The notes under the pieces: generated by a model
Told to the model about the DNA's origin: nothing
The model's database searches: none
Seen by the model: the letters and a program-made list of their open reading frames with translations, nothing else
Made by a program: the position numbers and the translations under genes
In this document: piece by piece, positions 8,194-24,109 of the stretch
How the letters are laid out: each line of letters opens with the position of its first letter
How positions within the stretch are numbered: the first letter of the stretch is position 1
Sequence record: PQ805430.1
Reading direction: 5' to 3' (one strand)
From: Escherichia phage EK8
Length of the DNA: 64,000 nt

Positions 8194-9234
8194 TTAATGC
8201 CAGAGTTCTTTGCTGTTACGAGCGATCCAGTCCTTCATCGCTTCATGCTGGATGAGTGAATCGTCACGCGCCATGATGTGACGGAATGCGATTACCTGGT
8301 ACTCCATCAGCATACGCTCGATGTACGGCACCAGTTTATCGATGTTGTCCTTATTGGCGTGCTGAGCCATTGAACCGGCTACAGCGTAAACCAGCGACGG
8401 ATTATCATCGCTTTCCGGGCAACGGGCTTTCAGCGGGTCTGCCAGAATGTCAGCCAGCTTCGGCACCTGGTCGAAGATTTTACAGAATGCAATAAATTCA
8501 GCACCTACACCAGATGAGATACAGCCAGCCACCAGCGGCAGGTCAGCATCAGTTACCGGTTCGCCACGGATCAGCTTATCCAGGAACATCCAGGTACGCG
8601 GAGCAGCGAAGGTCAGGTCGTCGTGGTCAGGCTTGAAGTGATGCACATAGTCCGGTTTGAACTCCAGAAACGCAGCGATACGATAATCGATATTCTGCGT
8701 CAGGGCATACTTCATGAAGCAATCCAGGTTGGTATACACCTGGAAGTTGATCATACGAGACTGCAACGGAGTTGGTAACGGGTTAACGATGGCACCATCG
8801 TCTTCCATGTTACCGGCAGCGGCCAGGAGTGCATGGGAGTGCAGCTTACGCTGGCCTACCATTTTATCCAGGATCAGCTTGAATGCAGCAGCCTGTACGG
8901 ACGGAGCCGCAGACGGCAGTTCATCCAGGAATACCAGCCAGCCTTTGTAGCCTTCGGGGATAGAATCCCCTTCGACCGGGAATACGTCGAACGGTACATA
9001 CTCCGCAATGTTGCGGGCACCGGACGTGTTGAAGTATGGCAGACCGTTCATGTCAGCAGGGTCATACGTGCTCAGACGCACGTCAATGACCTTGAGGCTG
9101 AACTTTTCTGCGATGGTGCGAATGATATCGGATTTACCGATGGCAGGTGATCCATGCAGCATAGGCACCAGACGTTTTTTGAGCACACGTTCTACGAACG
9201 GGATGGAGTGATCCAGACGGACTTGGGTTGTCAT
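8194..9234 (-). CDS. MoxR-like AAA+ ATPase
   Basis: P-loop LHGSPAIGKS, Walker B LVFLDE; classic partner of vWA proteins. Confidence 0.65.
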   Translation of the reverse strand: MTTQVRLDHSIPFVERVLKKRLVPMLHGSPAIGKSDIIRTIAEKFSLKVIDVRLSTYDPADMNGLPYFNTSGARNIAEYVPFDVFPVEGDSIPEGYKGWLVFLDELPSAAPSVQAAAFKLILDKMVGQRKLHSHALLAAAGNMEDDGAIVNPLPTPLQSRMINFQVYTNLDCFMKYALTQNIDYRIAAFLEFKPDYVHHFKPDHDDLTFAAPRTWMFLDKLIRGEPVTDADLPLVAGCISSGVGAEFIAFCKIFDQVPKLADILADPLKARCPESDDNPSLVYAVAGSMAQHANKDNIDKLVPYIERMLMEYQVIAFRHIMARDDSLIQHEAMKDWIARNSKELWH

Positions 9235-9236
9235 AA

Positions 9237-10004
9237 CTATACCTGTAAGAAGTAACGGTGAATGAGTTGATTCACAACACGGACGCCAATAGCATTCGTC
9301 TTGTAGACCATTTTAAGTTGGGCCTGCACTTCGTTGATGACCTTCTTCTTGTACTGGCTTAAGTTCTTGCCAGTACCGAACGCCTTAATGTACTCGTCCA
9401 GTAAACGAGACTCCGGCACCAGGTCGAGAAGGGATTGCAGGGACGGTCGGATGGTACTGAAATGCAGTGCCACACGTCCTAAAAATTCTGTACGCACACC
9501 CAGTTCACGCATACGGTCGTGGGTGAGGTTAGCTTCGCCATTGAAAGCACCAGCGAACACGAATAATACGTGCTCAACGGAGACTTTCTCGTACTTGCCA
9601 TAGTCACCAAAGACACTGGCGGTACTGCTTTCCAGCATGGTGAGGAACTCGTTCTGGACACCGGCCAGAGCTTCGTGAGTCTCACCGCCTACGCCATTGG
9701 TAAACAGCTTATCGAACTCGTCTACGAAGATTACGATGCCGTTTACCCCGACCATTCCCCGGAGGGGAGCCAGGGCTTTGGATAACGAGTTACCCGATAC
9801 ACCTTCTTTGGTTAAACCAGCAGCGTTGACTTCCAGCATCTGAATTTCACGCTCTTTGGCGAGAGTCGAGATCAGGTGAGATTTACCAGATCCTGATTCA
9901 CCCGACAGGATGAAGTGAGGGCGGATCGCACCTTTAGATTTAGTGTAAGCATCAAAGACGCGGCCTAATACGCCCGCAACTTCTTCTTGTTCTGGGAGAA
10001 TCAT
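9237..10004 (-). CDS. AAA+-type ATPase (255 aa)
   Basis: Walker A GESGSGKSHL, Walker B IVIFVDEFD. Confidence 0.55.
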   Translation of the reverse strand: MILPEQEEVAGVLGRVFDAYTKSKGAIRPHFILSGESGSGKSHLISTLAKEREIQMLEVNAAGLTKEGVSGNSLSKALAPLRGMVGVNGIVIFVDEFDKLFTNGVGGETHEALAGVQNEFLTMLESSTASVFGDYGKYEKVSVEHVLFVFAGAFNGEANLTHDRMRELGVRTEFLGRVALHFSTIRPSLQSLLDLVPESRLLDEYIKAFGTGKNLSQYKKKVINEVQAQLKMVYKTNAIGVRVVNQLIHRYFLQV

Positions 10005-10075: not shown

Positions 10076-10468
10076 TTAACGACAGTCGAACGCAATACCG
10101 AATTGCTTCTGGCCTTCGTAGCGGAATACGCCATAGAAGCCCGCATACTGGCCTGTGCCTTTGCTGAACAGCAGACCAATGTTGTTGTAGCCCTGTATAC
10201 CAGAAGGCTTCTGGATGATGAGCTGAGGCGACACCATTGCTACTTTGCCTTTCGCGTTAATCACGGTGAATCGGTCACCCTGATCACGGATGAAGGAGAT
10301 GGCCAACGGCTGATCCGGTTTACCCGTTTCAGTGCGAACAGCCTGACACCAGAGATCAGTAGCCGGGGCGGAGGCAACCGCCGTAACCTGCGTAGCAGGT
10401 GTAGGCTGGTTGACGACGCACCCAGCAAGAGAAAAAACAGCGACAGCAACGAGAATAAGTTTTTTCAT
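10076..10468 (-). CDS. lipoprotein (130 aa)
   Basis: signal peptide MKKLILVAVAVFSLAGC with lipobox LAGC. Confidence 0.6.
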   Translation of the reverse strand: MKKLILVAVAVFSLAGCVVNQPTPATQVTAVASAPATDLWCQAVRTETGKPDQPLAISFIRDQGDRFTVINAKGKVAMVSPQLIIQKPSGIQGYNNIGLLFSKGTGQYAGFYGVFRYEGQKQFGIAFDCR

Positions 10469-10638
10469 TTCTTAACTTCCGGTACGAATTGCATTACACA
10501 ATTCTGGTTTCGAGGTATGTTGAGTTCGCACTCATCACGTTTTTGTGTAAGTTCACTAGTTACTGTCCAATAGGTCAGCAAACCCATAAGAAATGCTCCC
10601 AACACTAAACCAATAACAAATTCCGGTTTATGATTCAT
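10465..10638 (-). CDS. small membrane protein (57 aa, below ORF-track cut-off)
   Basis: hand translation MNHKPEFVIGLVLGAFLMGLLTYWTV...; AAGGGG RBS; stop overlaps the lipoprotein start. Confidence 0.35.
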   Translation of the reverse strand: MNHKPEFVIGLVLGAFLMGLLTYWTVTSELTQKRDECELNIPRNQNCVMQFVPEVKK

Positions 10639-10960
10639 CTTTGATGCCCCTTAAACCAGGGATTGAGTTAAGCCGGGAGATGTATTCACCGATGTAAAAC
10701 AACTCATTAATTTCATCTTGCGTACAAATTAATTTATTGCCTGCATCAGTGATGATTTCCCAGGTTGGTATGAATACTAAAGCCGGGATACCATTGCCTT
10801 CACGCAGAACGAACGCATTACCGCAACGGCGACCATCTTTAGTGAAAAGCTGGCGACCAACCTCTACTACGCCATCAGGCTTATAAGCAGTGGCCCATTC
10901 GGGTAAAACTTCACGTTTGAATTGCTCATTTTGATCTTCAAAGTAATCTTCAAAGCTCAT
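10628..10960 (-). CDS. hypothetical protein (110 aa)
   Basis: ORF in operon context. Confidence 0.5.
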   Translation of the reverse strand: MSFEDYFEDQNEQFKREVLPEWATAYKPDGVVEVGRQLFTKDGRRCGNAFVLREGNGIPALVFIPTWEIITDAGNKLICTQDEINELFYIGEYISRLNSIPGLRGIKDES

Positions 10961-11942: not shown

Positions 11943-12459
11943 GACGCATTAAGGCAATGGCCTGTTCCTGCGTCATATCTTCCAGTTGTGAGTCGATATC
12001 CAGAGCACGTTCAAGCTGCTCAGGGGCGTAGATTTCTTTGTCGTGGAGAATGTCCAGCATTGCATGGCCAGACTTCTTCACATACTGGCTTAGGTAGCCC
12101 CAGAAAGCCGGTGTAGGCTGTCCTGACGGCGTAAAGAAGCCAGACAATACACGAGCTTCCAGACCAGCATAATCCGCATCGGATAATGTTTTATGGGCTT
12201 TAGCCAGTTGACAATTAGATTCTTTAAACAGGTCTTCTTGCAGACGTAAACCCATCTCCAGGGGAGTTTCCTGTTTACGTTTAGGGGCTAATAATTCATC
12301 GTACAGTTTGTCAATAGAAGTCTGGCCTTCATATGCCATCTGAACTTTGACAGCACGTACTGTAGCGACACGGAGGCCATACATGTTGGCTACCTGATAC
12401 TCGCTGTACTGCAACAAAGCACGGCGAACCTTGTTTTCCATATCTTTGGTAAGTTGCAT
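11866..12459 (-). CDS. hypothetical protein (197 aa)
   Basis: first ORF after a 516-bp noncoding spacer. Confidence 0.5.
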   Translation of the reverse strand: MQLTKDMENKVRRALLQYSEYQVANMYGLRVATVRAVKVQMAYEGQTSIDKLYDELLAPKRKQETPLEMGLRLQEDLFKESNCQLAKAHKTLSDADYAGLEARVLSGFFTPSGQPTPAFWGYLSQYVKKSGHAMLDILHDKEIYAPEQLERALDIDSQLEDMTQEQAIALMRRVAAKVYANAFKDPSGSGADVQDSE

Positions 12460-12604
12460 TTTAATCTCCAGGGTTAAATTTAAGCCTATAGATAACCTGA
12501 TTTGGTATATAGGATCGTTTAGTCAGACTGTCTCAAATGACTGTCTTCAACATATAGGTTTAAAACTTACGACACATACTATGTAAGGTCTAAAACTGTA
12601 TGCT

Positions 12605-12635
12605 CAAAACTAAAAACCCCTCACAAGGAGGGGTT
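12605..12635 (-). terminator. rho-independent terminator candidate
   Basis: aacccctc-acaag-gaggggtt hairpin with T-rich tract on minus strand. Confidence 0.4.
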
Positions 12636-12875
12636 TCTATTGCCATGTTTATCGTTGATTACAGGATCTGGAATCCTGCGCGTCTCAACCCTAGTGGGTC
12701 AGTCGCCGATTTCACTTTTACGACCAGAGGATCGTCTGTATGAACTACATCTGATACATGGCGGTACAGATGCAGCAACGATAAGATAAACCAGATTAGC
12801 ATCAGGTATCCTCATCGTAAGGTGAATCACACTATGTAATTCACATTGGATTATATAACCATAATACAATGTAAA

Positions 12876-12912
12876 CTAAGAAAAAGTAGGACACCCTAAG
12901 ATGGGGTGTCCT
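12876..12912 (-). terminator. rho-independent terminator candidate
   Basis: 9-bp stem aggacaccc/gggtgtcct then ctttttc on minus strand, just after the 81-aa gene. Confidence 0.45.
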
Positions 12913-12975
12913 TTCAGAAAGTAAAAACTAAGTTATGCAGACGCAGAGCGTCATTCATTAAACGCACGGAGTGCG

Positions 12976-13221
12976 TCATTTAAGTTTAAAACGGAGCTTC
13001 TGGGTTCCACCCTGTTCATCGAATACGGACTGCACTTCCACTACACCCTCGTGATCCAGTACCAGTACCTTGTCAGCTTTATTGGTGAACTCACCCTCGA
13101 TTTCAATGACCTTCAAGCCTAACAGCTTCTTGGTTTTGAACTCGTTCAGCTTATCTTCGGTGGTATAGATGACTCTGGTTTGTTGTGTAATATGTTGATA
13201 ACCGCGAAATGGGTCGGCCAT
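12976..13221 (-). CDS. small protein, paralog-family member (81 aa)
   Basis: carries family motif TEDKLNEFKTKKLLGLKV. Confidence 0.5.
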   Translation of the reverse strand: MADPFRGYQHITQQTRVIYTTEDKLNEFKTKKLLGLKVIEIEGEFTNKADKVLVLDHEGVVEVQSVFDEQGGTQKLRFKLK

Positions 13222-13493
13222 TATTCCTCCAGGTATAGACGGATCAGCTTGTCCTCCCCGTCTTCGTAGACACTGACGCCAACCACGCCGAATACTGGCA
13301 GATTGATACGCATCCAGCCTTTCTCCAGCAGATCAGGAGTAATGCGGAACTCGGTCGGGTTAACTCCGGCCAGCATACTGGCCTTGACCGTCGAAACGAG
13401 AGAGGCGGGAACATTCAACCGGGCGACAGGCTTACCCGGTTGTGGCAGAGATTGCAGCAATTTCATAGTTACCTCGATTTGAAGGTGATGCAC
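13221..13493 (-). CDS. small protein, divergent paralog-family member (90 aa)
   Basis: weaker motif VKASMLAGVNPTEF. Confidence 0.45.
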   Translation of the reverse strand: MHHLQIEVTMKLLQSLPQPGKPVARLNVPASLVSTVKASMLAGVNPTEFRITPDLLEKGWMRINLPVFGVVGVSVYEDGEDKLIRLYLEE

Positions 13494-13714
13494 TTAAACG
13501 AGCCATAAACACTCTCATACTGGATTGAGTCAGTATCTATGGGCATTAGTATGCAAGGGAATGTACGGTTAACCTCATCGATCCAGGCATTGGGTACGAG
13601 TACCTCATGATCCTTTATACCGATGAGCATTTCAGTTCTGAGTTCATCCATGATATCGCCCGGCAACCGGACTTCTACCCTGGGATCTGAACCATTGGAT
13701 ATGAAGACAGCCAT
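13469..13714 (-). CDS. small protein, paralog-family member (81 aa)
   Basis: motif IMDELRTEMLIGIKD. Confidence 0.5.
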   Translation of the reverse strand: MAVFISNGSDPRVEVRLPGDIMDELRTEMLIGIKDHEVLVPNAWIDEVNRTFPCILMPIDTDSIQYESVYGSFKCITFKSR

Positions 13715-13722
13715 AGGATCTC

Positions 13723-13869
13723 TTATCGTTTATACCAGTCTTTGATTTTGCAAGTAGTACAAACTGAGAATAGTTTTATGTATTGATTCGCTGTACCACC
13801 AAATTTTCTTGCACGTTCCTCAGCAGAAGGAACAAGTACAATTTCTTTATTACACTTCGAACATTTCAT
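13723..13869 (-). CDS. small zinc-ribbon protein (48 aa, below ORF-track cut-off)
   Basis: hand translation MKCSKCNKEIVLVPSAEERARKFGGTANQYIKLFSVCTTCKIKDWYKR; CxxC..CxxC; GGAGA RBS 6 nt upstream. Confidence 0.4.
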   Translation of the reverse strand: MKCSKCNKEIVLVPSAEERARKFGGTANQYIKLFSVCTTCKIKDWYKR

Positions 13870-13875
13870 AGGATC

Positions 13876-13907
13876 TCCAAATGAAATAGCCACCCCGAAG
13901 GGGTGGC
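13876..13907 (-). terminator. rho-independent terminator candidate downstream of RNAP II genes
   Basis: gccacccc-gaa-ggggtggc hairpin then T-rich tract on minus strand. Confidence 0.45.
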
Positions 13908-13913
13908 TGGTGG

Positions 13914-14168
13914 TTATTTCGGATACTTCGGGTCATTTTCTTTAAGCCAGATAACATGGCGATTGAAGGTATTAACCAGACGGTTGTATTCACCACCTGT
14001 GGCGACATTAATCATATCAATGCCACATTCGAAGCTGCATGTTAGATTAGCAATCTGGATACTGGTCTTTCTGGCTTGTCGCTTATGCCACCAGATTTTA
14101 AGAAAGAGCATAGTTTGAGTTCCTGATCTTATCGCCCAGGTCGTTGCTGAGCTTCTCGTAGACACCAT
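13914..14168 (-). CDS. hypothetical protein (84 aa; doubtful)
   Basis: ORF overlaps RNAP large-subunit 3' end by 71 nt in another frame. Confidence 0.2.
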   Translation of the reverse strand: MVSTRSSATTWAIRSGTQTMLFLKIWWHKRQARKTSIQIANLTCSFECGIDMINVATGGEYNRLVNTFNRHVIWLKENDPKYPK

Positions 14169-15372
14169 CGGTGGTCTGATATAACTGGTTCATGAGCATA
14201 GCCAGCATGTCGCTATCAGCGAAGTCAGCCATGATCTCTTTGTACCAGTAACGGGTGATATCGCAGTTGTTTGCATGGCAACCAAACGCATCATGCACCG
14301 TGATAATCGGGAACGGTTTGTACGTCAGCATGTCATCAGTGATAGACAGCAGCTTGGTAACAATCCACTCCGGCAGGCACATAACGTTGCTCCAGGTCAG
14401 CAGTGGCAGGATGGACAGGTCAGCGATGTGAGCCTTTTCCATCAAAGCCAGAGCTTCAACCAGTTCAGCATGTACAGGCAGACGGTTAGCACCGTTGGCA
14501 TACATGATTTGAGCATTGGCCAGCATCTCATTCGCAGGGTGAACGATAGCCGGATCGTAGTTACAGCGACGTTCCATCCCACGCAGGAGATAGGCGTCAC
14601 AACCGTGAATGGTATTGGCAACGTTGGCACGGCCACGCTCAGTACCTTCGTTCACCTTGTATTGCAGCGTGAACGTAGCGTGGTCGAGTTCGTCTACTTC
14701 AATCCTGGTTTCCTTCGACTCCATGACTTTCATCACGGCTACGAAGCCATCCGGGAACACCAGAGTGTGATCCAGTGCGAACGGACGCCAGGACTCCAGC
14801 AGTTCATCCATTAACTGGAATGCACCCGGAGCGATGATCATCGCAGCGTTGTAGAACACGTCCAGCATTTCACCTTCACCGAATACACGCTTTGGTACGG
14901 CCTTAGAGCCATAGCCAGAGGTCATCACGGCTTGTTTCACGTCCTTACGTGGAACAGTGATGGTAGCGTGACCGGTTTCCAGCAGGAGTTTATTCATCTC
15001 TGCTGTGGTGTTGCTGTACGCATCCATACGGGAGCGAGGGTCAATCATGCCAGTGTTGTAGGCACCAGAGATGCAGCCCGTGAGGGCTGACATAATCTGG
15101 ATACCAGAGCAGCAGGCATCGAAGTGAACGATATGCCCAACAGGGATACCACGGCGAGCACGGTCAATGACCATTGCAGCCTTACGGAACAGGGCAGGTT
15201 CTTCTGCCTGATCCGCGATAGCTTCGAGGTTGTTGATGTTGTTCTGGATGAACTCGATACGAGTATCGAACAGTTCTTTATCCATACCAAAGTGGTTGGC
15301 AGCATCTATACAGAGGTATTCCCAGCCAGTGAACGTCTGGAACCCGGAACCGAAATTGATAGTCTTTTGCAT
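14098..15372 (-). CDS. T7-like single-subunit RNA polymerase, catalytic (large) subunit of split RNAP II
   Basis: motif A HFDACCSGIQ (T7 FDGSCSGIQ), motif B VMTSGYGSK, motif C VHDAFG (T7 HDSFG). Confidence 0.8.
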   Translation of the reverse strand: MQKTINFGSGFQTFTGWEYLCIDAANHFGMDKELFDTRIEFIQNNINNLEAIADQAEEPALFRKAAMVIDRARRGIPVGHIVHFDACCSGIQIMSALTGCISGAYNTGMIDPRSRMDAYSNTTAEMNKLLLETGHATITVPRKDVKQAVMTSGYGSKAVPKRVFGEGEMLDVFYNAAMIIAPGAFQLMDELLESWRPFALDHTLVFPDGFVAVMKVMESKETRIEVDELDHATFTLQYKVNEGTERGRANVANTIHGCDAYLLRGMERRCNYDPAIVHPANEMLANAQIMYANGANRLPVHAELVEALALMEKAHIADLSILPLLTWSNVMCLPEWIVTKLLSITDDMLTYKPFPIITVHDAFGCHANNCDITRYWYKEIMADFADSDMLAMLMNQLYQTTDGVYEKLSNDLGDKIRNSNYALS

Positions 15373-15382
15373 AAGTTAATCC

Positions 15383-16384
15383 TCATTTTCTGAATTTATC
15401 AGGTACACCAATTACCGGCTCTTGATCGGCCAGGTTAATCATTGCTTTTTTGAAGCTGGTGCCCTGTGGGGTGATATGGTAGCCACAAGCGTACATGCGC
15501 CCGCGTTTGTCTACCTTGTTGCTGATATAGAACCGGTTACCCTGGTTCACCATCAGGCTGTAGAAGTAGTAGGACTGCTCCTTATAGGATGCCCAGTTCT
15601 CCTTCTGTTTGCGGATCATATCCGCTATCTGCCAGTCACTGAGATCCTCATCAGACTCAATGCTATCCAGATCGTGAGTTGGTTCTTCCTCCACTGAGCA
15701 TAGGAACTCAACGTCCAGGGACAGAGGAACACGATTGCGTGAATTAAGTACATCAAGGCAGATGTTTCCGTCATGATGGTTGAACCCTCCACCCAGAATG
15801 AGGCTATCGCTCTTGTGGGTATAGTAGGCAGTTGAACGGTTATTCGTGAGCTTACGAGGCTCACAAACCAGTGGTGGTAAATAGCATGAATATTCAATGA
15901 AGTTGCTTAATTCTTCACTGAACTGAATGTTACTGATTATCTGGATTGGGCTGTTACGGTGATGCTTGTTCAGGTCGAACACGTCGGTTGTAGCGAGTAC
16001 AGCCAGCACCTCAGCGATGGTCTGCACGCTATCACGTTTGTCATCGAAGCCCAGACGGGAAGCCAGTTGACCGATGGCATTGACCAGAGGCGTTTCAGCC
16101 TGGAAGTAGGTCACACCAACGAAGATCTCTTTGACGAGATTCTCCAGGTCAAGCTGGGCTAAGTGATGCAGCCGGACAGCTTTGCTGTCGTAATACTGCT
16201 CACTCATCCACTGCTTCAATAACTCAACGCCCTGCTCCACTTCTGGCAGCAGGTTCTCGGTGCCCTCAAATAACTCCTTACGGATGTATCCGTCGATATG
16301 ACGGCGATTGAACTGACGTTCGTTTACGAGTTGTAACTCTTTTGGTGGCAACCACTTATGTTCCATAATTCCCTCTAATCTCAA
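15383..16384 (-). CDS. T7-like RNA polymerase N-terminal (small) subunit of split RNAP II
   Basis: C-terminus DKRGRMYACGYHITPQGTSFKK resembles T7 RNAP DWRGRVYA...PQG segment that precedes motif A; immediately upstream of the catalytic subunit. Confidence 0.7.
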   Translation of the reverse strand: MRLEGIMEHKWLPPKELQLVNERQFNRRHIDGYIRKELFEGTENLLPEVEQGVELLKQWMSEQYYDSKAVRLHHLAQLDLENLVKEIFVGVTYFQAETPLVNAIGQLASRLGFDDKRDSVQTIAEVLAVLATTDVFDLNKHHRNSPIQIISNIQFSEELSNFIEYSCYLPPLVCEPRKLTNNRSTAYYTHKSDSLILGGGFNHHDGNICLDVLNSRNRVPLSLDVEFLCSVEEEPTHDLDSIESDEDLSDWQIADMIRKQKENWASYKEQSYYFYSLMVNQGNRFYISNKVDKRGRMYACGYHITPQGTSFKKAMINLADQEPVIGVPDKFRK

Positions 16385-16411
16385 ATAAAGAGGCCAACCC
16401 TAAGGTTGGCC
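16381..16411 (-). terminator. rho-independent terminator candidate just upstream of RNAP II genes
   Basis: ggccaacc-ctaa-ggttggcc hairpin then tctttatttg on minus strand. Confidence 0.45.
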
Positions 16412-16417
16412 GATTGG

Positions 16418-16717
16418 TTACGCGAGTTCGAACTTTGCACCTTCCGGCGTGGCTTCGCCATACGACAGGACGATGCGGGATGCCAGCGCTTTCAGTTGTT
16501 TCTCAACGTCAGCCTCAGACTTACAGTCTTTCAGCATGTCGATGATCATCCCTTCCAGGGGATGAGACTCACGCAGGCCAATACCCTGACCACCCAGACG
16601 TTTCAGACCTTGTTTGGTCATCACGCCGATGTTCAGATAGCCAGCGATTTTGTTGCGGTTAGCATCAGCAGCAGGAGCGGAGTTGTTAGAACCAGAAGAA
16701 CGACGATTGAAAGCCAT
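16418..16717 (-). CDS. hypothetical early protein (99 aa)
   Basis: ORF in early block. Confidence 0.5.
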   Translation of the reverse strand: MAFNRRSSGSNNSAPAADANRNKIAGYLNIGVMTKQGLKRLGGQGIGLRESHPLEGMIIDMLKDCKSEADVEKQLKALASRIVLSYGEATPEGAKFELA

Positions 16718-16781
16718 GATATATACCTCGAAGAATGAGTAGATGAATGATATTTAAAGGATTGGGGGGTTTTCCCCTCTG

Positions 16782-16796
16782 AGGCGCTATGCGCCT
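16782..16796 (-). promoter_or_regulatory. hairpin element aggcgc-TAT-gcgcct (candidate hairpin promoter)
   Basis: GC stem with 3-nt loop, 66 bp upstream of gene start at 16717; shares cgcTATgcg core with two other copies. Confidence 0.3.
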
Positions 16797-16797
16797 T

Positions 16798-17079
16798 CTA
16801 ACAGATGATGAGGCAGCTAACAGCGTCCCTCCAGGCTGCATAGAGCACCGGATTGCTGTTGACCTCATCATTGTATTGGGACAGGTCTTCGAACGCTTCA
16901 CGACCCAGGTGGGCAGCAGCAATCTCGACCTGAATTTCCAGCGATATGTCTTCCATCACAAGCTGTGACAGACCTTTACGAAACAGGAACAATGCCAGAG
17001 CACGCATCTCCCCGTCTTTCCATGCACGGGAAGCCCAACGAAGGTTGGTTTGAGCGTGGTCAATATTCATATTTGGCAT
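16798..17079 (-). CDS. hypothetical early protein (93 aa)
   Basis: ORF in early block. Confidence 0.5.
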   Translation of the reverse strand: MPNMNIDHAQTNLRWASRAWKDGEMRALALFLFRKGLSQLVMEDISLEIQVEIAAAHLGREAFEDLSQYNDEVNSNPVLYAAWRDAVSCLIIC

Positions 17080-17146
17080 ACAGATAGTCCTTAAGGGTGA
17101 GCGAGGATCCCAGCAGCCCTGGAATCCCCGGTAGTTATTCTGTTCG

Positions 17147-17161
17147 ACGCGCTATGCGCGT
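17147..17161 (-). promoter_or_regulatory. hairpin element acgcgc-TAT-gcgcgt (candidate hairpin promoter)
   Basis: same cgcTATgcg core, 69 bp upstream of gene start at 17079. Confidence 0.3.
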
Positions 17162-17445
17162 TTTCCTTCCAGAGTGACGTAGGACATTTCAACCGTGATA
17201 GTGGAGTAGACACCCAGCAAACACTTTGTGGCTATGGCATAACGCTCATCCCTACGCAGGGTAAATGCGTAGTAAACGTTATCCTGTTTGAACTGGTAGC
17301 TCTCGTTGATATCCAGCTTCGAGGGTGTATAGGCATAGATGCTCACATCAGCTAACACCACGCCTTCAATGGCATCGGTTATCTGGTTTATATCCCAGTC
17401 GATCACTGCGGTTAAGTCTTTGGATTTATACGTATGCTCGGCCAT
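17152..17445 (-). CDS. hypothetical early protein (97 aa)
   Basis: ORF in early block. Confidence 0.5.
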   Translation of the reverse strand: MAEHTYKSKDLTAVIDWDINQITDAIEGVVLADVSIYAYTPSKLDINESYQFKQDNVYYAFTLRRDERYAIATKCLLGVYSTITVEMSYVTLEGKRA

Positions 17446-17759
17446 TACATGCCCTTAATAGTTGCCTCCACCATTGTTACCTCTGGCTTCTTGAGCATGT
17501 GATGCGTCACGTAGACAGCCAGGATGACAAACTTGTTGTCGATACCCGGTATGGTAACGATGGTCTGAATGGTTCCACCCAGGTTATTCGGGCCTAAACT
17601 GACGTTGGCCAGGTTAACCGGGAAGGTGTCCTTGTACACGAATTTGGGGCTTATCAGCCGCATTGTACGAAGATGATCATACTGCTCAGCACTCAGCCAG
17701 CCTATGGCTTCACCATCGTTTACCTTACGGATTTCGTACTCACGTACCTTAGTAGTCAC
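17445..17759 (-). CDS. small protein, paralog-family member (104 aa)
   Basis: motif LSAEQYDHLRTMRLIS. Confidence 0.5.
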   Translation of the reverse strand: MTTKVREYEIRKVNDGEAIGWLSAEQYDHLRTMRLISPKFVYKDTFPVNLANVSLGPNNLGGTIQTIVTIPGIDNKFVILAVYVTHHMLKKPEVTMVEATIKGM

Positions 17760-18121
17760 TCGGCTTCTCCTGTAAGTTTCAGCGGTGGTTTATATTTCAG
17801 AAACCAGCGTGAGATGATACGGCGATTAACCTGTGGAATTAACTCACCACGGTCTACAGCACGTCCACGCCAGTCTTCCGGGCAGTCCATAAATATGGGC
17901 TTAGGCGGATCGCCTCCGTCATACCAGTACACGATGGACGGTAGTTCGAACACCGTATCGGGAGTTATCAACGTAGTGGTACGCATGGCATCAAACTCTT
18001 CCTGAGTTATCTTGGCCTCAACGATGAGGCTAATACCATTCGGGCTTCGTTGTAATATATCCCGTAAGTAAATTGATTTTGACATTAAAAGGGTATCTCC
18101 TTGGTGAAGTTGAATACCCAC
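17756..18121 (-). CDS. small protein, paralog-family member (121 aa)
   Basis: motif ITQEEFDAMRTTTLITP. Confidence 0.5.
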   Translation of the reverse strand: MGIQLHQGDTLLMSKSIYLRDILQRSPNGISLIVEAKITQEEFDAMRTTTLITPDTVFELPSIVYWYDGGDPPKPIFMDCPEDWRGRAVDRGELIPQVNRRIISRWFLKYKPPLKLTGEAE

Positions 18122-18378
18122 GTCATCGGTTGAATAACATCTTCGATACGTTCGTATTCTTCACTGGTTAAAGTATCAGGACGACCTTCGAGATATAAAT
18201 CTTCGGTCACATTCAGATAGCTGGATACACCAAAGTCAGATTTGAATGTATCTACCACTTTACGGTATACAGCGCCTTCACCTAATAAGGTTAAAGCAGT
18301 ACGTATAGCATCTACTTCATTCTGGCTTAACTGACATACCACACGAGAGAACCCTCTAGATCTTAGTTCGTATCCCAT
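18085..18378 (-). CDS. small protein, paralog-family member (97 aa)
   Basis: motif LSQNEVDAIRTALTLLGEG. Confidence 0.5.
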   Translation of the reverse strand: MGYELRSRGFSRVVCQLSQNEVDAIRTALTLLGEGAVYRKVVDTFKSDFGVSSYLNVTEDLYLEGRPDTLTSEEYERIEDVIQPMTWVFNFTKEIPF

Positions 18379-18701
18379 GGTGTATTAAACCTCGCTATTA
18401 GTTGACCGTTCTTTTCAAAGTACAGGAAATTAATACGGACTGAATCCAGATATAGAAGGCTGCTATTACCGGACACTAATAAATGCGGTACAGCCAGTTC
18501 TTCTTTTTTAAAAATAGGCACATCCAGGATGCAGTCCTCCACACCTAATAAGTGTTGAGTACGCATGTTTAATATCAGATCATCATTAATCTCGAAATAA
18601 CGATGACCATTATCATTAACGCTGGTGGCACGACAATAACGTTTCATGCACCCTCCACTCGAACAAAGTGATACATTTCCTGCACCGAAGGTGTAGGCCA
18701 T
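18363..18701 (-). CDS. small protein, paralog-family member (112 aa)
   Basis: motif INDDLILNMRTQHLLGVED. Confidence 0.5.
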   Translation of the reverse strand: MAYTFGAGNVSLCSSGGCMKRYCRATSVNDNGHRYFEINDDLILNMRTQHLLGVEDCILDVPIFKKEELAVPHLLVSGNSSLLYLDSVRINFLYFEKNGQLIARFNTPWDTN

Positions 18702-18955
18702 TCGAACTGGGAATTAGAGCATGGCTCTAATGTAATACGTAATTCAGTACCAGGTATCTGATATTGCATATATACGTTGGTCTGGATTAAGTGAATTTGT
18801 TCGGGTTTTAATATCGTCAATGAATCACGATAATTTATCATTCGATTGCCCAACAAATAGTTGGTACGAATAACCCCAATATCCTCTTCACTTAATTTAC
18901 GTGAGATCAGATAACCATGCTGTATGGCAGCAAGTATTATCTCGTTCACTTGCAC
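18644..18955 (-). CDS. small protein, paralog-family member (103 aa)
   Basis: motif LSEEDIGVIRTNYLLGNR. Confidence 0.5.
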   Translation of the reverse strand: MQVNEIILAAIQHGYLISRKLSEEDIGVIRTNYLLGNRMINYRDSLTILKPEQIHLIQTNVYMQYQIPGTELRITLEPCSNSQFEWPTPSVQEMYHFVRVEGA

Positions 18956-19605
18956 TCCTTATAACAGTAGGCAACGATTTCAACATCGACCTCTTTACGC
19001 CGGGCAACCATATCTTCATGCTCTTGAATACGAGCACGACCATACGGTGACAGCCAGTCATCAGGATCAGCTTTAGCGTAACGGGCTTCGATACAGCCAC
19101 GACGCCACTTGATCAAATAGCGATGAGCAGCCAGATATGACTTGAAGAACTGAGCACGATAAACGCACTCTTCATCAAACTCTCTGGCTTCATCACCCAT
19201 TACACGGTTGGAGATAAACTTATCGGTAAGGAACTTACCGGTGCCAACCTCACGCAGGAAATACATGGTCTTGAATTGGGTATCACCCCCACGATATTCA
19301 TGCAGTCGCAACATCGTGATTTCCATATCCTCACGTTGACGTGTGGGTACAGGAATAGGTTTACCCGGATAAGTCCAGTAATAGCTGTGGTATTCATCGC
19401 CATCCCAGTCTTCTTCACGAGGGATCTGACCTTGCAGCCAGATGGTGAGATAGATTTTGGCATGGCGTAATTCCGGGAATACACGCGGATATGCTAACCG
19501 TGGATCAATGGGTTCAACCCATGAACCACCACGCATACGACTGGACTTGGGTTTAGGCAGAAACTCCTTACGTCGTTTAATGGCATACACATGCTGAGTT
19601 AACAT
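18946..19605 (-). CDS. hypothetical early protein (219 aa)
   Basis: ORF in early block. Confidence 0.5.
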   Translation of the reverse strand: MLTQHVYAIKRRKEFLPKPKSSRMRGGSWVEPIDPRLAYPRVFPELRHAKIYLTIWLQGQIPREEDWDGDEYHSYYWTYPGKPIPVPTRQREDMEITMLRLHEYRGGDTQFKTMYFLREVGTGKFLTDKFISNRVMGDEAREFDEECVYRAQFFKSYLAAHRYLIKWRRGCIEARYAKADPDDWLSPYGRARIQEHEDMVARRKEVDVEIVAYCYKECK

Positions 19606-19844
19606 TAACGAAACCTCATTTGTGTTACAGGTTCAATGTGGAATTGCCAGTGGTTATTACCCAGGTATTCCACGGAATAGTAATTACCCATATGGTGGGT
19701 TTTATCCTTACCCATATGGTTAATACTTACAGCCGGTGCATCAATGACATTAATACCCAGTAGTTTGAATATACGCATTTGATCCATCATGGCTTTAGTT
19801 AGCCAGATGCCTTTACCGGTCTTACTACATCTGAGCTTTTGCAT
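19605..19844 (-). CDS. small protein, paralog-family member (79 aa)
   Basis: motif LTKAMMDQMRIFKLLGINV. Confidence 0.45.
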   Translation of the reverse strand: MQKLRCSKTGKGIWLTKAMMDQMRIFKLLGINVIDAPAVSINHMGKDKTHHMGNYYSVEYLGNNHWQFHIEPVTQMRFR

Positions 19845-20115
19845 AGGCTTCCTCTACTAATAAACGTAGAGCGTGCATAGCCTGATTACAGGTTTCACCC
19901 TCTTTGGTGATGTGGATAATGTCAGCCGGTGTACCGTCTTCCAGGGTTTTACCAATATCCGCATACAGAATGTAATTACCACGGCCATCGGATTCCATAG
20001 ACAGCTTTACGTCTTTCTCTTTGAAATAACGCTCATCATCTTCGTCGATAGCGTTAATTTCTGTATTGGTTCGATTACCGAAAGGACGGGTATAGATTAA
20101 GCAATTAATTGGCAT
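19825..20115 (-). CDS. hypothetical early protein (96 aa)
   Basis: ORF in early block. Confidence 0.45.
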   Translation of the reverse strand: MPINCLIYTRPFGNRTNTEINAIDEDDERYFKEKDVKLSMESDGRGNYILYADIGKTLEDGTPADIIHITKEGETCNQAMHALRLLVEEAYAKAQM

Positions 20116-20237
20116 AAGATTTACCTTTTAACCATGCAGCTTTATAGATATCCCATAAGTCTATCTCAATAGCTTTAGGGCCATAATTAGCAGTGAGCCA
20201 CATTCTGTAATCACTGCGGCATTGAATGAGTTCTTGT

Positions 20238-20486
20238 TCAGTCACGGAATAATTGCTCCATATCGGTTAACAATTCGTATTTAAGGCTGACCTGCACTTC
20301 CATTGGAATGGGTTGAGGTGTCACGCCTAACATAAGCTGGGTTCGATGCTGACTTATAAAGTCCTCATCAATAATTTTGGTAATGAGTTGAGTTATATCT
20401 AACTCCACTTCACCATCTTTAAGGTAATACCTTAAGATAATTGGTTTAAGTTTACTCATACGATTAGTCCAGGACGGGAAACTCAT
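20238..20486 (-). CDS. small protein, paralog-family member (82 aa)
   Basis: motif IDEDFISQHRTQLMLGVTP. Confidence 0.5.
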   Translation of the reverse strand: MSFPSWTNRMSKLKPIILRYYLKDGEVELDITQLITKIIDEDFISQHRTQLMLGVTPQPIPMEVQVSLKYELLTDMEQLFRD

Positions 20487-20505
20487 AAATATGGCCGGAG
20501 GCCAT

Positions 20506-20533
20506 AAAAAATAAGATAAGCCCCGAAGGGCTT
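20506..20533 (-). terminator. rho-independent terminator candidate
   Basis: aagccc-cgaa-gggctt hairpin then atcttatttttt on minus strand. Confidence 0.45.
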
Positions 20534-20702
20534 ATTTAGATTTAAACAAAGATATGGGATAACCAATCATAAATATCACAAAGCCCATTACGAGAATGAA
20601 GGCAGTGAATACCAGTTCAGCAATAAGCATGGCAATGGCAAACACAAACGGCAGCAGGCCAGTGAAGTAAAGTACGACCATTACGATCAGGAATGTGATC
20701 AT
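20532..20702 (-). CDS. small membrane protein (56 aa, below ORF-track cut-off)
   Basis: hand translation MITFLIVMVVLYFTGLLPFVFAIAMLIAELVFTAFILVMGFVIFMIGYPISLFKSK; ATGA overlap with upstream gene stop. Confidence 0.35.
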   Translation of the reverse strand: MITFLIVMVVLYFTGLLPFVFAIAMLIAELVFTAFILVMGFVIFMIGYPISLFKSK

Positions 20703-21091
20703 TCAAATGTTACCTTTTTCCAATACTGCATATTGATATAACCACCCTTACGAATATGTTTATCGATACGGTTAAGCGTATGCTCCACCTGAGCTTTAAG
20801 TTCTGGCTTGCAGCCGTCACGGTACTCAGCGGAATGCGCGAGGTAATAATCCTCGCCATAGATCGTTATCTCGATCCGATTGATGTAATACTGCTGTCCC
20901 AGGTGCGTCTGCATCAGACGACGAGCAATACGAGGGAATGTCAATGCGCGAGCATGTTCACGCTCTAAACGCATTTCGAAGCCCGCAGCACGGGCTTTAA
21001 CGATTTCGTCATGTACCATTAAATGTGATTGCATAATATGTCCCCAGTCCCGAAGCGATGATGAACAACCATACAGCGAGAATAATGGCAA
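20699..21091 (-). CDS. hypothetical early protein (130 aa; true start probably an internal Met)
   Basis: ORF; annotated 5' end overlaps upstream gene. Confidence 0.45.
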   Translation of the reverse strand: MPLFSLYGCSSSLRDWGHIMQSHLMVHDEIVKARAAGFEMRLEREHARALTFPRIARRLMQTHLGQQYYINRIEITIYGEDYYLAHSAEYRDGCKPELKAQVEHTLNRIDKHIRKGGYINMQYWKKVTFE

Positions 21092-21224
21092 TAATGCCTA
21101 TCTCCAGTGCATGGTTAGGTTTGGTTCCGAACATGCGAGCACGTTCTTCCTCATGCCGAATACCCCAATAGAGCATCGGCACAACGATGATAGTGAACAA
21201 CGCAAAGCCTAAGAGGTAACCCAT
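21009..21224 (-). CDS. small membrane protein (71 aa, start re-assigned to internal ATG)
   Basis: GAGGA RBS 6 nt before ATG at 21224; two hydrophobic helices; ORF-track start 21299 adds an implausible Cys-rich leader. Confidence 0.4.
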   Translation of the reverse strand: MGYLLGFALFTIIVVPMLYWGIRHEEERARMFGTKPNHALEIGIIAIILAVWLFIIASGLGTYYAITFNGT

Positions 21225-21358
21225 ACTTAGTCCTCGTACTGATTCATGCTTACCAGACGGACAGCAGCGAAGGTTGCTACTACGGATACAGCAGCCCATA
21301 CGAGCAGACCGGTTAAAATAGTCATAATTAATACCTCTGGTTTAAATGGAATCACCCG

Positions 21359-21371
21359 ACTCGCTATGCGA
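21359..21371 (-). promoter_or_regulatory. hairpin element ctcgc-TAT-gcgag (candidate hairpin promoter)
   Basis: same cgcTATgcg core, in spacer upstream of small membrane-protein genes. Confidence 0.3.
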
Positions 21372-21387
21372 GCCAGGTTTTGATTAT

Positions 21388-22011
21388 TTATGCACGGATG
21401 ACAAGTTGCATGTCTGGTACAGTCAAAGCAGCGTTCGTGTCCTGCACGTAGACTGCGTTATGTGGGTCACCCTCTTCCAGTGTCTTCTGTAACTTTTGAC
21501 GACCACCATACGCATATCCCTGGGCCATATAGAACAGAGTACCATCAGGTAGGTCACCAAACCGCTCCACACGCGGTAAATCGCTTGCACCTACATCAAC
21601 TACAGGCAGATTGAGTTCAGTCGCTCTGTGAGCGATACAGGCGCTTTTAGAGGGATTGACCATCTCGCTACGCTCAATGGTCGCTTCGCTGCACTTCATG
21701 CAATTACAAGCATCACCACATACAGATAAGTCAGTAAGTGGTTTGATTGGACGACAGAACTCAATAACATCTGACCAGCCATCTACAGGCTCATTATCAC
21801 CGTGGAACAGTGTGATGTAGTGGAAGTCAGATTCACGCTGTCCTAACAGCCATGCGTATACAGATGCTTTATCTTCAAACTCTTTCTCTGTCGAGTGAGT
21901 TGCATCAAAGGTCAGATAGTCCAGTACGAATAACGTAGTCATAGTATGTCTCCAATAAGTTAAGTGTATTACTTCACTTAAAGTGCTATGCACTACTACC
22001 GGTCGTAACAC
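21388..22011 (-). CDS. hypothetical early protein with Cys cluster (207 aa)
   Basis: ORF; CGDACNCMKC motif. Confidence 0.45.
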   Translation of the reverse strand: MLRPVVVHSTLSEVIHLTYWRHTMTTLFVLDYLTFDATHSTEKEFEDKASVYAWLLGQRESDFHYITLFHGDNEPVDGWSDVIEFCRPIKPLTDLSVCGDACNCMKCSEATIERSEMVNPSKSACIAHRATELNLPVVDVGASDLPRVERFGDLPDGTLFYMAQGYAYGGRQKLQKTLEEGDPHNAVYVQDTNAALTVPDMQLVIRA

Positions 22012-22038
22012 TACGGTACTACGTACCTACGTGTTACT

Positions 22039-22090
22039 GACTAACCAATACTTCGTACTACGCTTCGCTACGTACTCGTATTGGTTAGTC
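22039..22090. repeat. perfect 13-bp inverted repeat gactaaccaatac / gtattggttagtc with 26-bp spacer
   Basis: read directly at 22039..22051 and 22078..22090. Confidence 0.8.
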
Positions 22091-22118
22091 TTACATCCCT
22101 AGTTATGTATACACATAC

Positions 22119-22259
22119 TAATAGTAAGGTTATTAGATATAAGGTAGATATGAGTTATAGATATAGGATAGGTATAGGTATAGAGATAGTAGTTGATAGG
22201 GTATAGGTAGAGATAAGTGATATAGATATAGATAAAGTAGTAGTAAGAGTAAGTAGTAA
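22119..22259. repeat. cytosine-free microsatellite-like tract (GTA/TAG/ATA units)
   Basis: 141 bp with no C on plus strand; only 4 C in 22119..22320; units taggta, gatatag, gtagtaa. Confidence 0.8.
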
Positions 22260-22520
22260 CAAAGTAGTAAGTAAGTAGAGATAGTAGTAACAGGTAGATA
22301 CTAAACATAAGTAAGTAGTGTTTTACTCAGTAAATACATCCTAATCTCTGTCAACCTTTTCCACTAATATAAATTTCCGATAAGGGTTATCGATAAAAGT
22401 GGTATAGGAAACTTACTGTATGATTTCTGACCGTCATACCTAGCGCGAGTAAAAGCTGTAAAGTTTTGGTAACTTATAGCGCGCCTTACTGTCTCAGTGG
22501 TGAGTTGTGTAATGTGTAAT

Positions 22521-22557
22521 TGTGTAGAAAAGAAATAGCCTACTCCGAAGAGTAGGC
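22521..22557 (-). terminator. rho-independent terminator after the first early gene
   Basis: 8-bp stem gcctactc/gagtaggc, loop cgaa, then ctatttcttttct on minus strand. Confidence 0.5.
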
Positions 22558-22564
22558 ATTGATG

Positions 22565-22819
22565 TTATGCAGTAGCAGTAGCTGATGCAGCCAGAGCTTT
22601 GACTTGGTTATCAAGCTCAGACTTAGCTGCGTTGTAAATCATCTGGTCTTTGATTTCGATGAGTTCACCGAAGCGTTTAGCTTTGTTCTCTGCTACCTTA
22701 GCCAGCTCATCACCAGCAGTAGCCAGACGATTGACTGCGGTTGCAGTTGTGGTGACAGTGGATACGGTTGCAACTACAGCACCAGTGAGAGCAGCGAACA
22801 GACCTTGTGGTTGGGACAT
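22565..22819 (-). CDS. hypothetical small protein (84 aa), apparently monocistronic
   Basis: ORF followed immediately by a terminator. Confidence 0.5.
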   Translation of the reverse strand: MSQPQGLFAALTGAVVATVSTVTTTATAVNRLATAGDELAKVAENKAKRFGELIEIKDQMIYNAAKSELDNQVKALAASATATA

Positions 22820-22991
22820 GAGTAATACTCCATAGCTATTGGATTAATGTAAGGGATGAAGGCATCTCACCTTCAAGACTCTGAAGCCTCCCACATCGCA
22901 GAGCTACGATTGTGGGTGCATACATGTGATTAATCTCAAGCAGACAATGTATGAAAACACTGAATGAGATGGATACGTATATCCATATGAT

Positions 22992-23002
22992 GGCCTATGG
23001 CC
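22992..23002 (-). promoter_or_regulatory. hairpin element ggcc-TAT-ggcc (weaker relative of the cgcTATgcg hairpins)
   Basis: 4-bp GC stem, TAT loop, about 175 bp upstream of gene start 22819. Confidence 0.2.
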
Positions 23003-23133
23003 TGAATTGTGTAAGGCGTAGTAAGAATCCTTTTTCAGCCAGCACTATGGAGGGGGTATCCACCCAAAGCTACAGCCAGAGTAGTAAGTTGAGCACTCGT
23101 ACCTAAATTAAAAAATTTTATAAAAGTTTTCCC

Positions 23134-23334
23134 TTAAACTTTTTTATCTCTATCCAGCGGAGCTATCCTGTTTACCCACCCTTCAAACTTATCCCTGAGT
23201 TTATCCATACCGTTCCAAATACTTTCAAAGATATAAGCAAGCACTAACGCTATACCACCCACCAACCATATCACTAACCAAACTGGCAGCAGAGAGATAC
23301 GGATAGCCTTGCTCTTGGTACTCATGCGATACAT
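23134..23334 (-). CDS. small membrane protein (66 aa)
   Basis: one strong TM helix; GAGG RBS; flanked by AT-rich sequence. Confidence 0.4.
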   Translation of the reverse strand: MYRMSTKSKAIRISLLPVWLVIWLVGGIALVLAYIFESIWNGMDKLRDKFEGWVNRIAPLDRDKKV

Positions 23335-23362
23335 AAAATTTTCCTCATAAAATTTTTAAAAA

Positions 23363-23391
23363 TTGCCCAACCTTTCGACCCTATTTATACT
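23363..23391 (+). promoter_or_regulatory. sigma70-like promoter candidate for the late operon
   Basis: -35 ttgccc (23363..23368), 17-bp spacer, -10 tatact (23386..23391), about 30 bp before the first late gene. Confidence 0.3.
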
Positions 23392-23422
23392 CTGGCTTAG
23401 AACCTATAGGGAGACTATATCA

Positions 23423-24109
23423 ATGGCATTGCTCGATTTAAATACACTCAAAGCTGCGTTGCCTGACAACATCCGTAAGACTATCACTGATGAAGTGTTG
23501 AATGGGATTAACGCTGCTGTGGCTGACCCCCAGTTTTACGAGTATTACCGTAACAACCTGTTGAGCTATGGCCATGTGCTGAAAGAAGGGAAGTTTACGG
23601 TTAAGCAGTACAGTGCAGCAGTCCGGTATGTGTCGTATAAGCTGATGGGCTTAACGAACCAGGAAGCGTGGATGAAGACCTTCCCGGACAAGTATGCGTA
23701 CTTCGCTCAGAAGGGCACCAGTGCAAAAGACATTTCAAGTTACGTCCATGCGTACCATAATACTAAACTGGTAAACCTGGTAATGGAGCAGTCGCTTGTT
23801 CCTGTGCATGTGGTAGGCCGTGACCTGTTCTGGAAAGCTCTCAACGTTCAGGCTGAGTTAATGGTCAGTGCTACCAGTGAAAAGGTACGCAGCGATGCTG
23901 CGAACAGCGTACTGAACACGTTGCGCCCGCCTGAGACTAAGAAGATGGAACTGGATATCAACCACAAGGACGATGGTACGCTGGAGGCGTTGCGTGCTGC
24001 TACGCAGGCTCTGGTAGACCAGCAATCGAATGCGATTGCTAGTGGGACAGTAACAGCAGGGCAGGTGGCCGCGTACCGTGTCATTGAAGCGGAGAAACTC
24101 GATGAGTAA
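23423..24109 (+). CDS. putative terminase small subunit (229 aa)
   Basis: first gene of late operon, directly upstream of large terminase; GGGAGA RBS 8 nt before ATG at 23423 (ORF-track start 23363 is a TTG). Confidence 0.35.
   Translation: MALLDLNTLKAALPDNIRKTITDEVLNGINAAVADPQFYEYYRNNLLSYGHVLKEGKFTVKQYSAAVRYVSYKLMGLTNQEAWMKTFPDKYAYFAQKGTSAKDISSYVHAYHNTKLVNLVMEQSLVPVHVVGRDLFWKALNVQAELMVSATSEKVRSDAANSVLNTLRPPETKKMELDINHKDDGTLEALRAATQALVDQQSNAIASGTVTAGQVAAYRVIEAEKLDE

Follow-up and report, generated by a model that had tools for sequence, protein, structure and literature searches.

The window analysed here is a 64,000-nucleotide (nt) stretch of Escherichia phage EK8 (record PQ805430.1), and within its block of minus-strand early genes we identified five small DNA hairpins that are candidate early promoters. 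Sequence reading and a hairpin scan placed all five between 16.8 and 23.0 kb, at most about 6.3 kb from the point matching the left genome end of phage CB3, and each presents a TAT loop on the plus strand, which is the template strand because the early genes lie on the minus strand. The hairpins thus occupy the leftmost region, upstream of and co-oriented with minus-strand genes that include a drc-like gene, in a phage that also encodes a giant virion RNA polymerase (vRNAP). A megablast search with positions 15000-24000 matched only Schitoviridae of the genus Cbunavirus (Pectobacterium phages phiA41, CB1, CB3, CB4, Nepra and Possum, and Kosakonia phage Kc283), at ~80% identity over 28-54% of the query; at this level of nucleotide identity the window represents a distinct N4-like phage and, judged from these matches, a new relative of the Pectobacterium Cbunavirus phages. 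Hairpin scanning and counting covered the 64-kb window, and seven relatives (CB3, phiA41, Kc283, SABI, Nepra, Possum and CB1) were scanned in their early regions.

The five sites, labelled P0 to P4 in order of falling coordinate, are all candidate minus-strand promoters with the hairpin on the plus strand. P0 (22992-23002; GGCC-TAT-GGCC, predicted +1 at ~22986) has a stem of only 4 base pairs (bp), sits where the relatives have their terminal repeat, matches a site ~140 nt from the CB3 terminus, and would drive a minus-strand gene for an 84-amino-acid (aa) membrane protein at 22565-22819. P1 (21982-21994; AGTGC-TAT-GCACT, 5-bp stem, predicted +1 at ~21977, reading GTG) lies ~40 nt upstream of the ATG at 21942 of a 184-aa gene, and P2 (21360-21372; CTCGC-TAT-GCGAG, 5-bp stem, predicted +1 at ~21355, again GTG) lies 35 nt upstream of the ATG at 21325 of a small membrane-protein open reading frame (ORF). 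P3 (17147-17161; ACGCGC-TAT-GCGCGT, 6-bp stem, predicted +1 at ~17143) overlaps the TAG stop codon of the upstream gene and precedes by 68 nt a 93-aa gene (16798-17079), which separates it from P4, 365 nt away. P4, or P-drc (16782-16796; AGGCGC-TAT-GCGCCT, 6-bp stem, predicted +1 at ~16778), stands 65 nt upstream of the drc-like gene. A first-pass annotation made from the sequence letters had proposed candidate vRNAP promoters here from three perfect-stemmed cgcTATgcg hairpins and a 'weaker relative', ggccTATggcc. Its coordinates hold for P4, P3 and the 4-bp P0 hairpin, are one base off for P2 (placed at 21359-21371), and its set was incomplete, the hairpin scan having recovered P1 as well. 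The spacing it gave to the start codons (35-70 nt) agrees with the 35-68 nt that we measured, and its observation of T-C-(A/G) following the three main sites on the coding strand holds too.

DNA folding returned every one of the five hairpins, with P4 at -7.7 kcal/mol (z = -3.8) and P0 marginal (z = -1.6). Counting against shuffled sequence, a check proposed in the first-pass annotation, revealed a strong excess: the plus strand has four perfect C·G-closed TAT-loop hairpins whose stems reach 5 bp or more, against 0.23 expected, a count attained by 0 of 1000 dinucleotide-preserving shuffles, and the 9-mer CGCTATGCG occurs three times, always on the plus strand (0.38 expected; 1 of 100 shuffles gets to three). 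The minus strand of the 64-kb window holds a single hairpin of this description, GCACC-TAT-GGTGC at 3189-3201, which lies inside an 812-aa ORF and which we took as chance (one match versus 0.23 expected). Also taken as chance was a motif-like, symmetric palindrome in the middle region, ACCGGT-ATA-ACCGGT at 868-882. Separately, sigma-70-like matches in 12000-24000 are about half as frequent as in shuffles (11 versus 23.6 ± 4.7), a scarcity that is consistent with early and middle regions avoiding promoters of the host RNA polymerase and that makes such promoters a weak alternative to the hairpins.

Searching the early regions of the relatives, as the first-pass annotation had also suggested, showed that the five positions are occupied syntenically in 7 of 7 relatives, with the TAT always on the template strand. 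At P0, the hairpin reads TGGCC-TAT-GGCCA, with a 5-bp stem, in most relatives (CB3, phiA41, Nepra, CB1 and Kc283) and keeps the 4-bp GGCC-TAT-GGCC in Possum and SABI; it is a conserved member of the family rather than the weak relative it had been called. At P1, CB3 and CB1 read ATAGTGC-TAT-GCACTAT. Orthologous stems elsewhere differ by compensatory changes: at P2, CTCGC/GCGAG corresponds to CGTGC/GCACG in CB3, two compensatory pair changes apart; at P3, which is kept in all seven relatives, CGCGC corresponds to CGTGC/GCACG in SABI, and the CB3 stem is weakened to 4 bp; and at P4, where CB3 has the same AGGCGC-TAT-GCGCCT as the window, the hairpin becomes ACGGCC-TAT-GGCCGT in Nepra, Possum and CB1 (CC-TAT-GG replacing GC-TAT-GC) and AACGCGC-TAT-GCGCGTT in SABI. 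Across 30 distinct copies, 92.8% of stem cells are paired and double changes occur at 5 of 6 pairs, with a covariation score that 0 of 500 shuffles attain and that exceeds all slid controls, a count that is nevertheless inflated, the sites having been picked by their stems; the orthologous alignments form the unbiased part of this evidence.

The same comparison bears on whether these inverted repeats might be duplex operators bound by a dimeric phage or host regulator and not extruded at all. Short intergenic palindromes upstream of genes would suit such a role, yet here the half-sites vary among sites and among orthologues while their complementarity is kept, which fits a structural reading better than a duplex one; moreover, the central C-TAT-G is the only fixed part, and the loop, which is asymmetric, faces the same way relative to transcription at every site. 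We therefore consider an operator role highly improbable. A side observation on P2 is that its cassette, CTGG-stem-ATA-stem-TCGGGTGA, is present in two copies both in Possum (10588-10600 and 10886-10898) and in CB1 (9876-9888 and 10190-10202), with identical flanks and different stems, and that each copy precedes a different small gene, which suggests that promoter-plus-gene modules move as units.

Aligning the coding strands on the loop revealed a shared anatomy beyond the stem. C-ATA-G never varies, -4 and +2 are nearly always T, and at most of the otherwise unrelated sites R-T-G (R, purine) occupies +1 to +3, which puts the R 11 nt and the G 13 nt away from the loop centre. At P0 in Cbunavirus these three positions read ATG. 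P3 carries ACA/ATA in place of the motif and is for that reason the least certain member of the set. On the template side, C at -9 is invariant and G at -8 is found in P1 to P4 of the window; across the aligned copies the G at -8 appears not to be obligatory. Under the N4-type rule the middle base of the template-strand loop, position -11, is a purine (PMC3715699, PMC6027278), and the first-pass annotation had read the TAT loop as departing from this rule. The middle base on the template strand is A, a purine, in each of the five sites and throughout the 42 copies, orthologous or paralogous, so that here the first-pass reading was mistaken.

Next to these hairpins, the early block contains stem-loops of a quite different kind. 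The canonical terminators, all on the minus strand, combine a GC stem of 8-9 bp with, in most cases, a TTCG loop, and are followed by a T-run: one follows the first gene (22538-22557; GCCTACTC-TTCG-GAGTAGGC then TATTTCTTTT, equivalent to CB3 Torf3_1), one lies inside the block (20516-20535; ATAAGCCC-TTCG-GGGCTTAT then CTTATTTTTT, CB3 Torf3_7), and one follows the drc-like gene (16392-16411; GGCCAACC-TTAG-GGTTGGCC then TCTTTATTTG, in the position of CB3 Torf3_21). It could be argued that the TAT hairpins too act in the coding-strand RNA, as weak terminators, attenuators or 3'-end or processing stem-loops, given that they stand 0-16 nt past an upstream stop codon and that the coding-strand stem of P2 can be extended to 11 pairs with G·U (A·C mismatches in the template DNA), such that a permissive terminator scan lists P2, alone of the five, on account of this G·U pairing and of a tail weakly rich in T. 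None of the five hairpins is followed by a U-tract on the coding strand, however, and a 5-bp triloop hairpin would be marginal as RNA beside the real terminators of the block; upstream of P0 and P1 there is no gene whose transcript they could end; and an invariant loop, a one-sided RTG at fixed distance and a GC-NRN-GC match to N4 are not expected of terminators. A scan of 16000-23500 against Rfam gave nothing with E <= 1. The lack of U-tracts and the different build of the real terminators rule out the terminator reading for practical purposes (to the first-pass annotation, too, the hairpins did not look like terminators), and we regard an RNA-level role of any of these kinds as very improbable.

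Gene context adds the drc-like gene, the RNAPII genes and the vRNAP. The 99-aa product of the drc-like gene (16418-16717, minus strand) is homologous to the family of ssDNA-binding RNAPII cofactors that includes LUZ7 gp14. We base this homology on full-length matches of both proteins to PHROG 6271: phrog_6271 is matched by the 99-aa protein at E = 1.3e-34 and by LUZ7 gp14 (Drc) at 5.2e-37, and a Kc283 protein annotated 'ssDNA binding RNA Polymerase cofactor' matches it at 1.9e-36. A direct BLASTP comparison of the 99-aa protein with LUZ7 gp14 gave no alignment, and a comparison with PDB gave no match. Immediately beyond lie the genes for the two subunits of an N4-type RNAPII heterodimer (15383-16384 and 14098-15372, minus strand; phrog_2166 at 6.4e-118, phrog_2051 at 4.1e-151, Pfam RNA_pol at 1.8e-19). 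The gap before the small-subunit gene (16385-16417) is filled by the drc terminator, and no TAT hairpin stands directly before the RNAPII genes, from which it follows that RNAPII would be reached by read-through. The vRNAP gene lies far downstream on the plus strand (40142-51232), encodes 3696 aa as the first-pass annotation had stated, and has a C-terminal domain that matches N4 vRNAP chains and structures at E = 7.5e-47; homologues of its RNAP domain occur across Schitoviridae, and we presume that this is the enzyme that reads the hairpins.

Since the phage encodes both RNAPII and a Drc homologue, the hairpins could instead be promoters of the RNAPII heterodimer working with Drc. Support for this comes from LUZ7, in which that enzyme also seems to use GC-rich hairpins: the middle promoters there resemble the early ones, their stems having 6 bp or more and their loops 3-4 nt, and they precede the transcription start site by ~15 bp (PMC9163698). 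The position of our sites speaks the other way: they stand upstream of the drc and RNAPII genes and at the extreme left end, where they would be needed before RNAPII exists, no TAT hairpins were found among the middle genes of the 64-kb window, and the promoters of drc in LUZ7 are early (PMC9163698). A role as RNAPII promoters therefore seems to us quite improbable.

Hairpins of this kind are already known, and orthologues of ours are already annotated, as predictions, in sister phages, with predicted early hairpin promoters on record for the Cbunavirus phages CB1, CB3, CB4 and Possum. The GenBank records of CB1 and CB3 (KY514264, KY514265) carry three predicted 'promoter' stem-loops described as typical of N4 early promoters, and promoter_1, promoter_2 and promoter_3 correspond to P1, P2 and P4 of the window, with the same TAT loop and gene context. 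Table S4 of Buttimer et al. 2018 (PMC6027278) lists TGGCC-TAT-GGCCA in the terminal repeat ('Porf_1', our P0), the P2 hairpin ('Porf_4') and a third candidate, GGTAC-TAC-GTACC ('Porf_2'). The equivalent of the last, a perfect hairpin at 22015-22027, 21 nt upstream of P1, was excluded from our family, its loop being TAC and not C-TAT-G; it belongs to a run of GTACGTAG-type repeats at 22015-22070. For P3 we found no promoter annotation in the CB1 and CB3 records or in any other GenBank record or paper that we consulted. Buttimer et al. cite the central-purine rule explicitly for Cbunavirus phages (PMC6027278), and the paper on Possum repeats the N4-type early promoter statement (PMC9569702). The window differs from these sister phages in its ~80% nucleotide identity, its other P2 stem and its diverged drc leader.

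Taking these lines together, we interpret the TAT-loop hairpins as probable N4-type vRNAP early promoters of the phage, with a rough probability of 0.8. What we observe directly is the anatomy of the sites, their strand and position bias, their conservation with compensatory stem changes, and their gene context. These observations, the contrast with the terminators, the likeness to N4 and the annotation of CB1 and CB3 support the proposal first made from the sequence letters, which withstood all the computational tests applied to it. By analogy with N4, negative supercoiling after injection would extrude each inverted repeat as a small cruciform; the vRNAP would then bind the template-strand hairpin through its 5-6 bp stem (4 bp at P0), its TAT loop with a central purine and its C·G closing pair; and RNA synthesis would start ~11-13 nt downstream, usually at R-T-G. 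Extrusion, vRNAP binding and the exact start sites are all taken over from the N4 model. On this scheme P0 to P4 would partition the leftmost 6.3 kb, with ordinary terminators as the boundaries of its units, and P4 would drive the gene for the drc-like RNAPII cofactor.

Several points weigh against this interpretation. Besides the inflated covariation count, intergenic regions are ~77-80% conserved throughout in the orthologous alignments, so conservation alone is weak evidence. Individual sites depart from the pattern: P0 of the window pairs over 4 bp only, P3 shares bases with a stop codon and has no RTG, and C takes the place of G at -8 in P0 and, in Nepra, Possum and CB1, at the drc site. 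Promoter calls within the genus are all computational, and the hairpins chosen as promoters in Table S4 are not the same as those marked in GenBank. Lastly, N4 hairpins owe their unusual stability to a sheared G·A pair, which is impossible in a TAT triloop, so that extrusion and resistance to the host SSB are not guaranteed.

The known picture of how infection starts in N4-like phages is unchanged by these results. New here are the full set of five sites, including P1, which the first-pass annotation lacked, and the unannotated P3, the shared initiation motif, the apparent dispensability of G at -8, and the comparison of loops across genera. In practical terms, five candidate vRNAP promoters and three terminators make a usable map of early transcription, whose units would cover the gene for the first membrane protein, the genes for host takeover, that for the Drc cofactor and, where transcription passes the drc terminator, those for RNAPII.

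Some further features of the region were noted beside the hairpins. Just downstream of P4, in the drc leader, a GC hairpin (GGGG-AAAA-CCCC on the coding strand) occupies 16764-16777, and relatives have GGGC-AAAATC-GCCC or GGGC-ATGTTAA-GCCC further downstream; this may be a conserved stem-loop in the 5' untranslated region of the most highly expressed early mRNA. Between the terminator of the first gene and P1, positions 22100-22330 hold degenerate short direct repeats (TAGATA, GGTATAG and AGTAGTAA units) with a purine-rich plus strand. A 69-aa ORF there (22099-22308) is of low complexity and probably spurious, and the repeats might be a replication- or packaging-related field. At 22490-23360 the early left end passes through a region like the terminal repeat of the relatives and on into late plus-strand genes, which begin at 23363 with a gp69-like gene and the terminase. 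From this continuity we conclude that the assembly is circularly joined or permuted, with the terminal repeat collapsed.

We compared the candidate sites with the promoters of coliphage N4, in which extrusion is driven by supercoiling, the host SSB stabilises the hairpin and vRNAP binds it directly (PMC4496689). In the N4 record EF056009 the template-strand promoters read GTTGC-GAA-GCAAC (90-102), AAGAAGC-GGA-GCTTCTT (557-573) and AAGCTGC-GGA-GCAGCTT (4546-4562), upstream of gp1, gp2 and RNAP1, and the first 9 kb contain no other GC-GRA-GC hairpins; a G lies 11 nt downstream of each loop centre and is preceded on the coding strand by TTTT or TTAT, which fits the published account (PMC4496689). 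Both phages thus have template-strand hairpins with a 3-nt loop, a C·G closing pair and a short stem (5-7 bp in the N4 class), following the heptamer pattern GC-GRA-GC in N4 and GC-TAT-GC here, with C at -9 and the purine at -11 kept. They also share G at -8 (four of the five sites here), T at -4 on the coding strand, a first site ~100-150 nt from the left genome end with others upstream of the genes for RNAPII or its cofactor, and a giant virion RNAP. The differences begin with number and layout: N4 has three promoters and our window five candidate sites, the initiation region is TTTT-GG in N4 and RTG here, and N4 P3 is directly upstream of RNAP1, whereas no promoter directly precedes the RNAPII genes here. 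They extend to the loop, which is GAA, GGA and GGA in N4 and TAT throughout here, with the outer bases changed and the centre A, and to base contacts: N4 presents G at -10 or -11 to K114, R119 and D901, whereas neither position is G here, and some of our sites carry C at -8, a base contacted by N4 vRNAP, in which R904 and D901 contact the stem bases at -8 and -9.

A GRA loop with a sheared G·A pair, a feature of the N4 loop, is absent from the TAT hairpins, but this feature appears to be specific to N4 itself and not to the wider class of hairpin promoters, because the hairpins before LUZ7 drc carry a GTA loop in our own scan of the sequence. The polymerases differ as well, the RNAP domain here being ~19% identical to that of N4, and a phmmer search of vRNAP residues 1001-2300 against PDB sequences returned nothing even at E = 10, so that only the C-terminal domain matches N4 there and simple homology does not place the contact residues. 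With N4 mini-vRNAP residue numbering checked against a review, a MAFFT alignment of eight vRNAP RNAP domains places catalytic Asp residues with N4 D559 and D951. In segments that are gappy, at an overall identity of 18.6%, it tentatively pairs W129 with an aromatic residue, Y1145 (TEANRW/TEVNRY), and R904 with R2028, while N4 K114, R119 and D901 appear not to be conserved. A loop specificity different from that of N4 is plausible, and it has precedent. On that view, with no sheared G·A pair and with the residues that read -10G/-11G apparently not conserved, extrusion, strand choice and loop recognition might rely on other contacts.

In LUZ7, ONT-cappable-seq identified two tandem early hairpin promoters before drc, the most abundant phage transcript, and showed early transcripts to start with a G that lies 13-14 nt away from the centre of the hairpin (Putzeys et al. 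2022, PMC9163698); our own scan of FN422398 likewise found two hairpins 32 nt apart before drc. LUZ7 and the window share stems of at least 4 bp with a conserved 3-nt loop, more than three early promoters, and both GC-loop-GC and CC-loop-GG closures; the LUZ7 start G has its counterpart in the conserved G at 13 nt, and the strong promoters directly before the highly expressed LUZ7 drc in P4. They differ in the template loop, which in our own reading of FN422398, as opposed to the authors' table, is GTA with a central pyrimidine, and in the arrangement before drc, a tandem pair 32-33 nt apart in LUZ7 versus P3 and P4 at 365 nt. The nearest outgroup is the Klebsiella phage GADU21 (Efbeekayvirus), with an RNAPII small subunit 63% identical; other Klebsiella phages of Efbeekayvirus type have a vRNAP RNAP domain ~40% identical. 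GADU21 has three unannotated hairpins with a C·G-closed T-R-T template loop (TGT), one of them directly before its drc-like gene, and A-T-G or A-T-A at the N4-equivalent +1 to +3, and it differs in its central purine (G), its stems of 7-8 bp and its CC-TGT-GG closure. Its hairpin at 8285-8303 (CATTGCCC-ACA-GGGCAATG) ends 2 nt before the annotated ATG (8305) of the drc-like gene, such that transcription beginning 11-13 nt from the loop centre would begin on the start codon itself and the drc mRNA may be leaderless. The early region of Acinetobacter phage At2 showed no clear recurring hairpin motif.

Read across genera from our own sequence comparisons, the template-strand loop is GRA in N4, GTA in LUZ7, TGT in GADU21, and TAT in Cbunavirus and SABI. 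We tentatively raise the possibility, to which we give somewhat less than even odds, that the Cbunavirus vRNAP and its C-TAT-G hairpins form a pair orthogonal to that of N4, and that the loop (GRA, GTA, TGT or TAT) is a rapidly co-evolving specificity code within Schitoviridae. Loop diversity of this kind could yield orthogonal transcription systems on single-stranded DNA. The C·G closure, the 3-nt loop and a start ~11-13 nt downstream are shared across these genera while the loop differs, and it is this combination of common architecture and divergent loop that makes the co-evolution of vRNAP and promoter loop directly testable.

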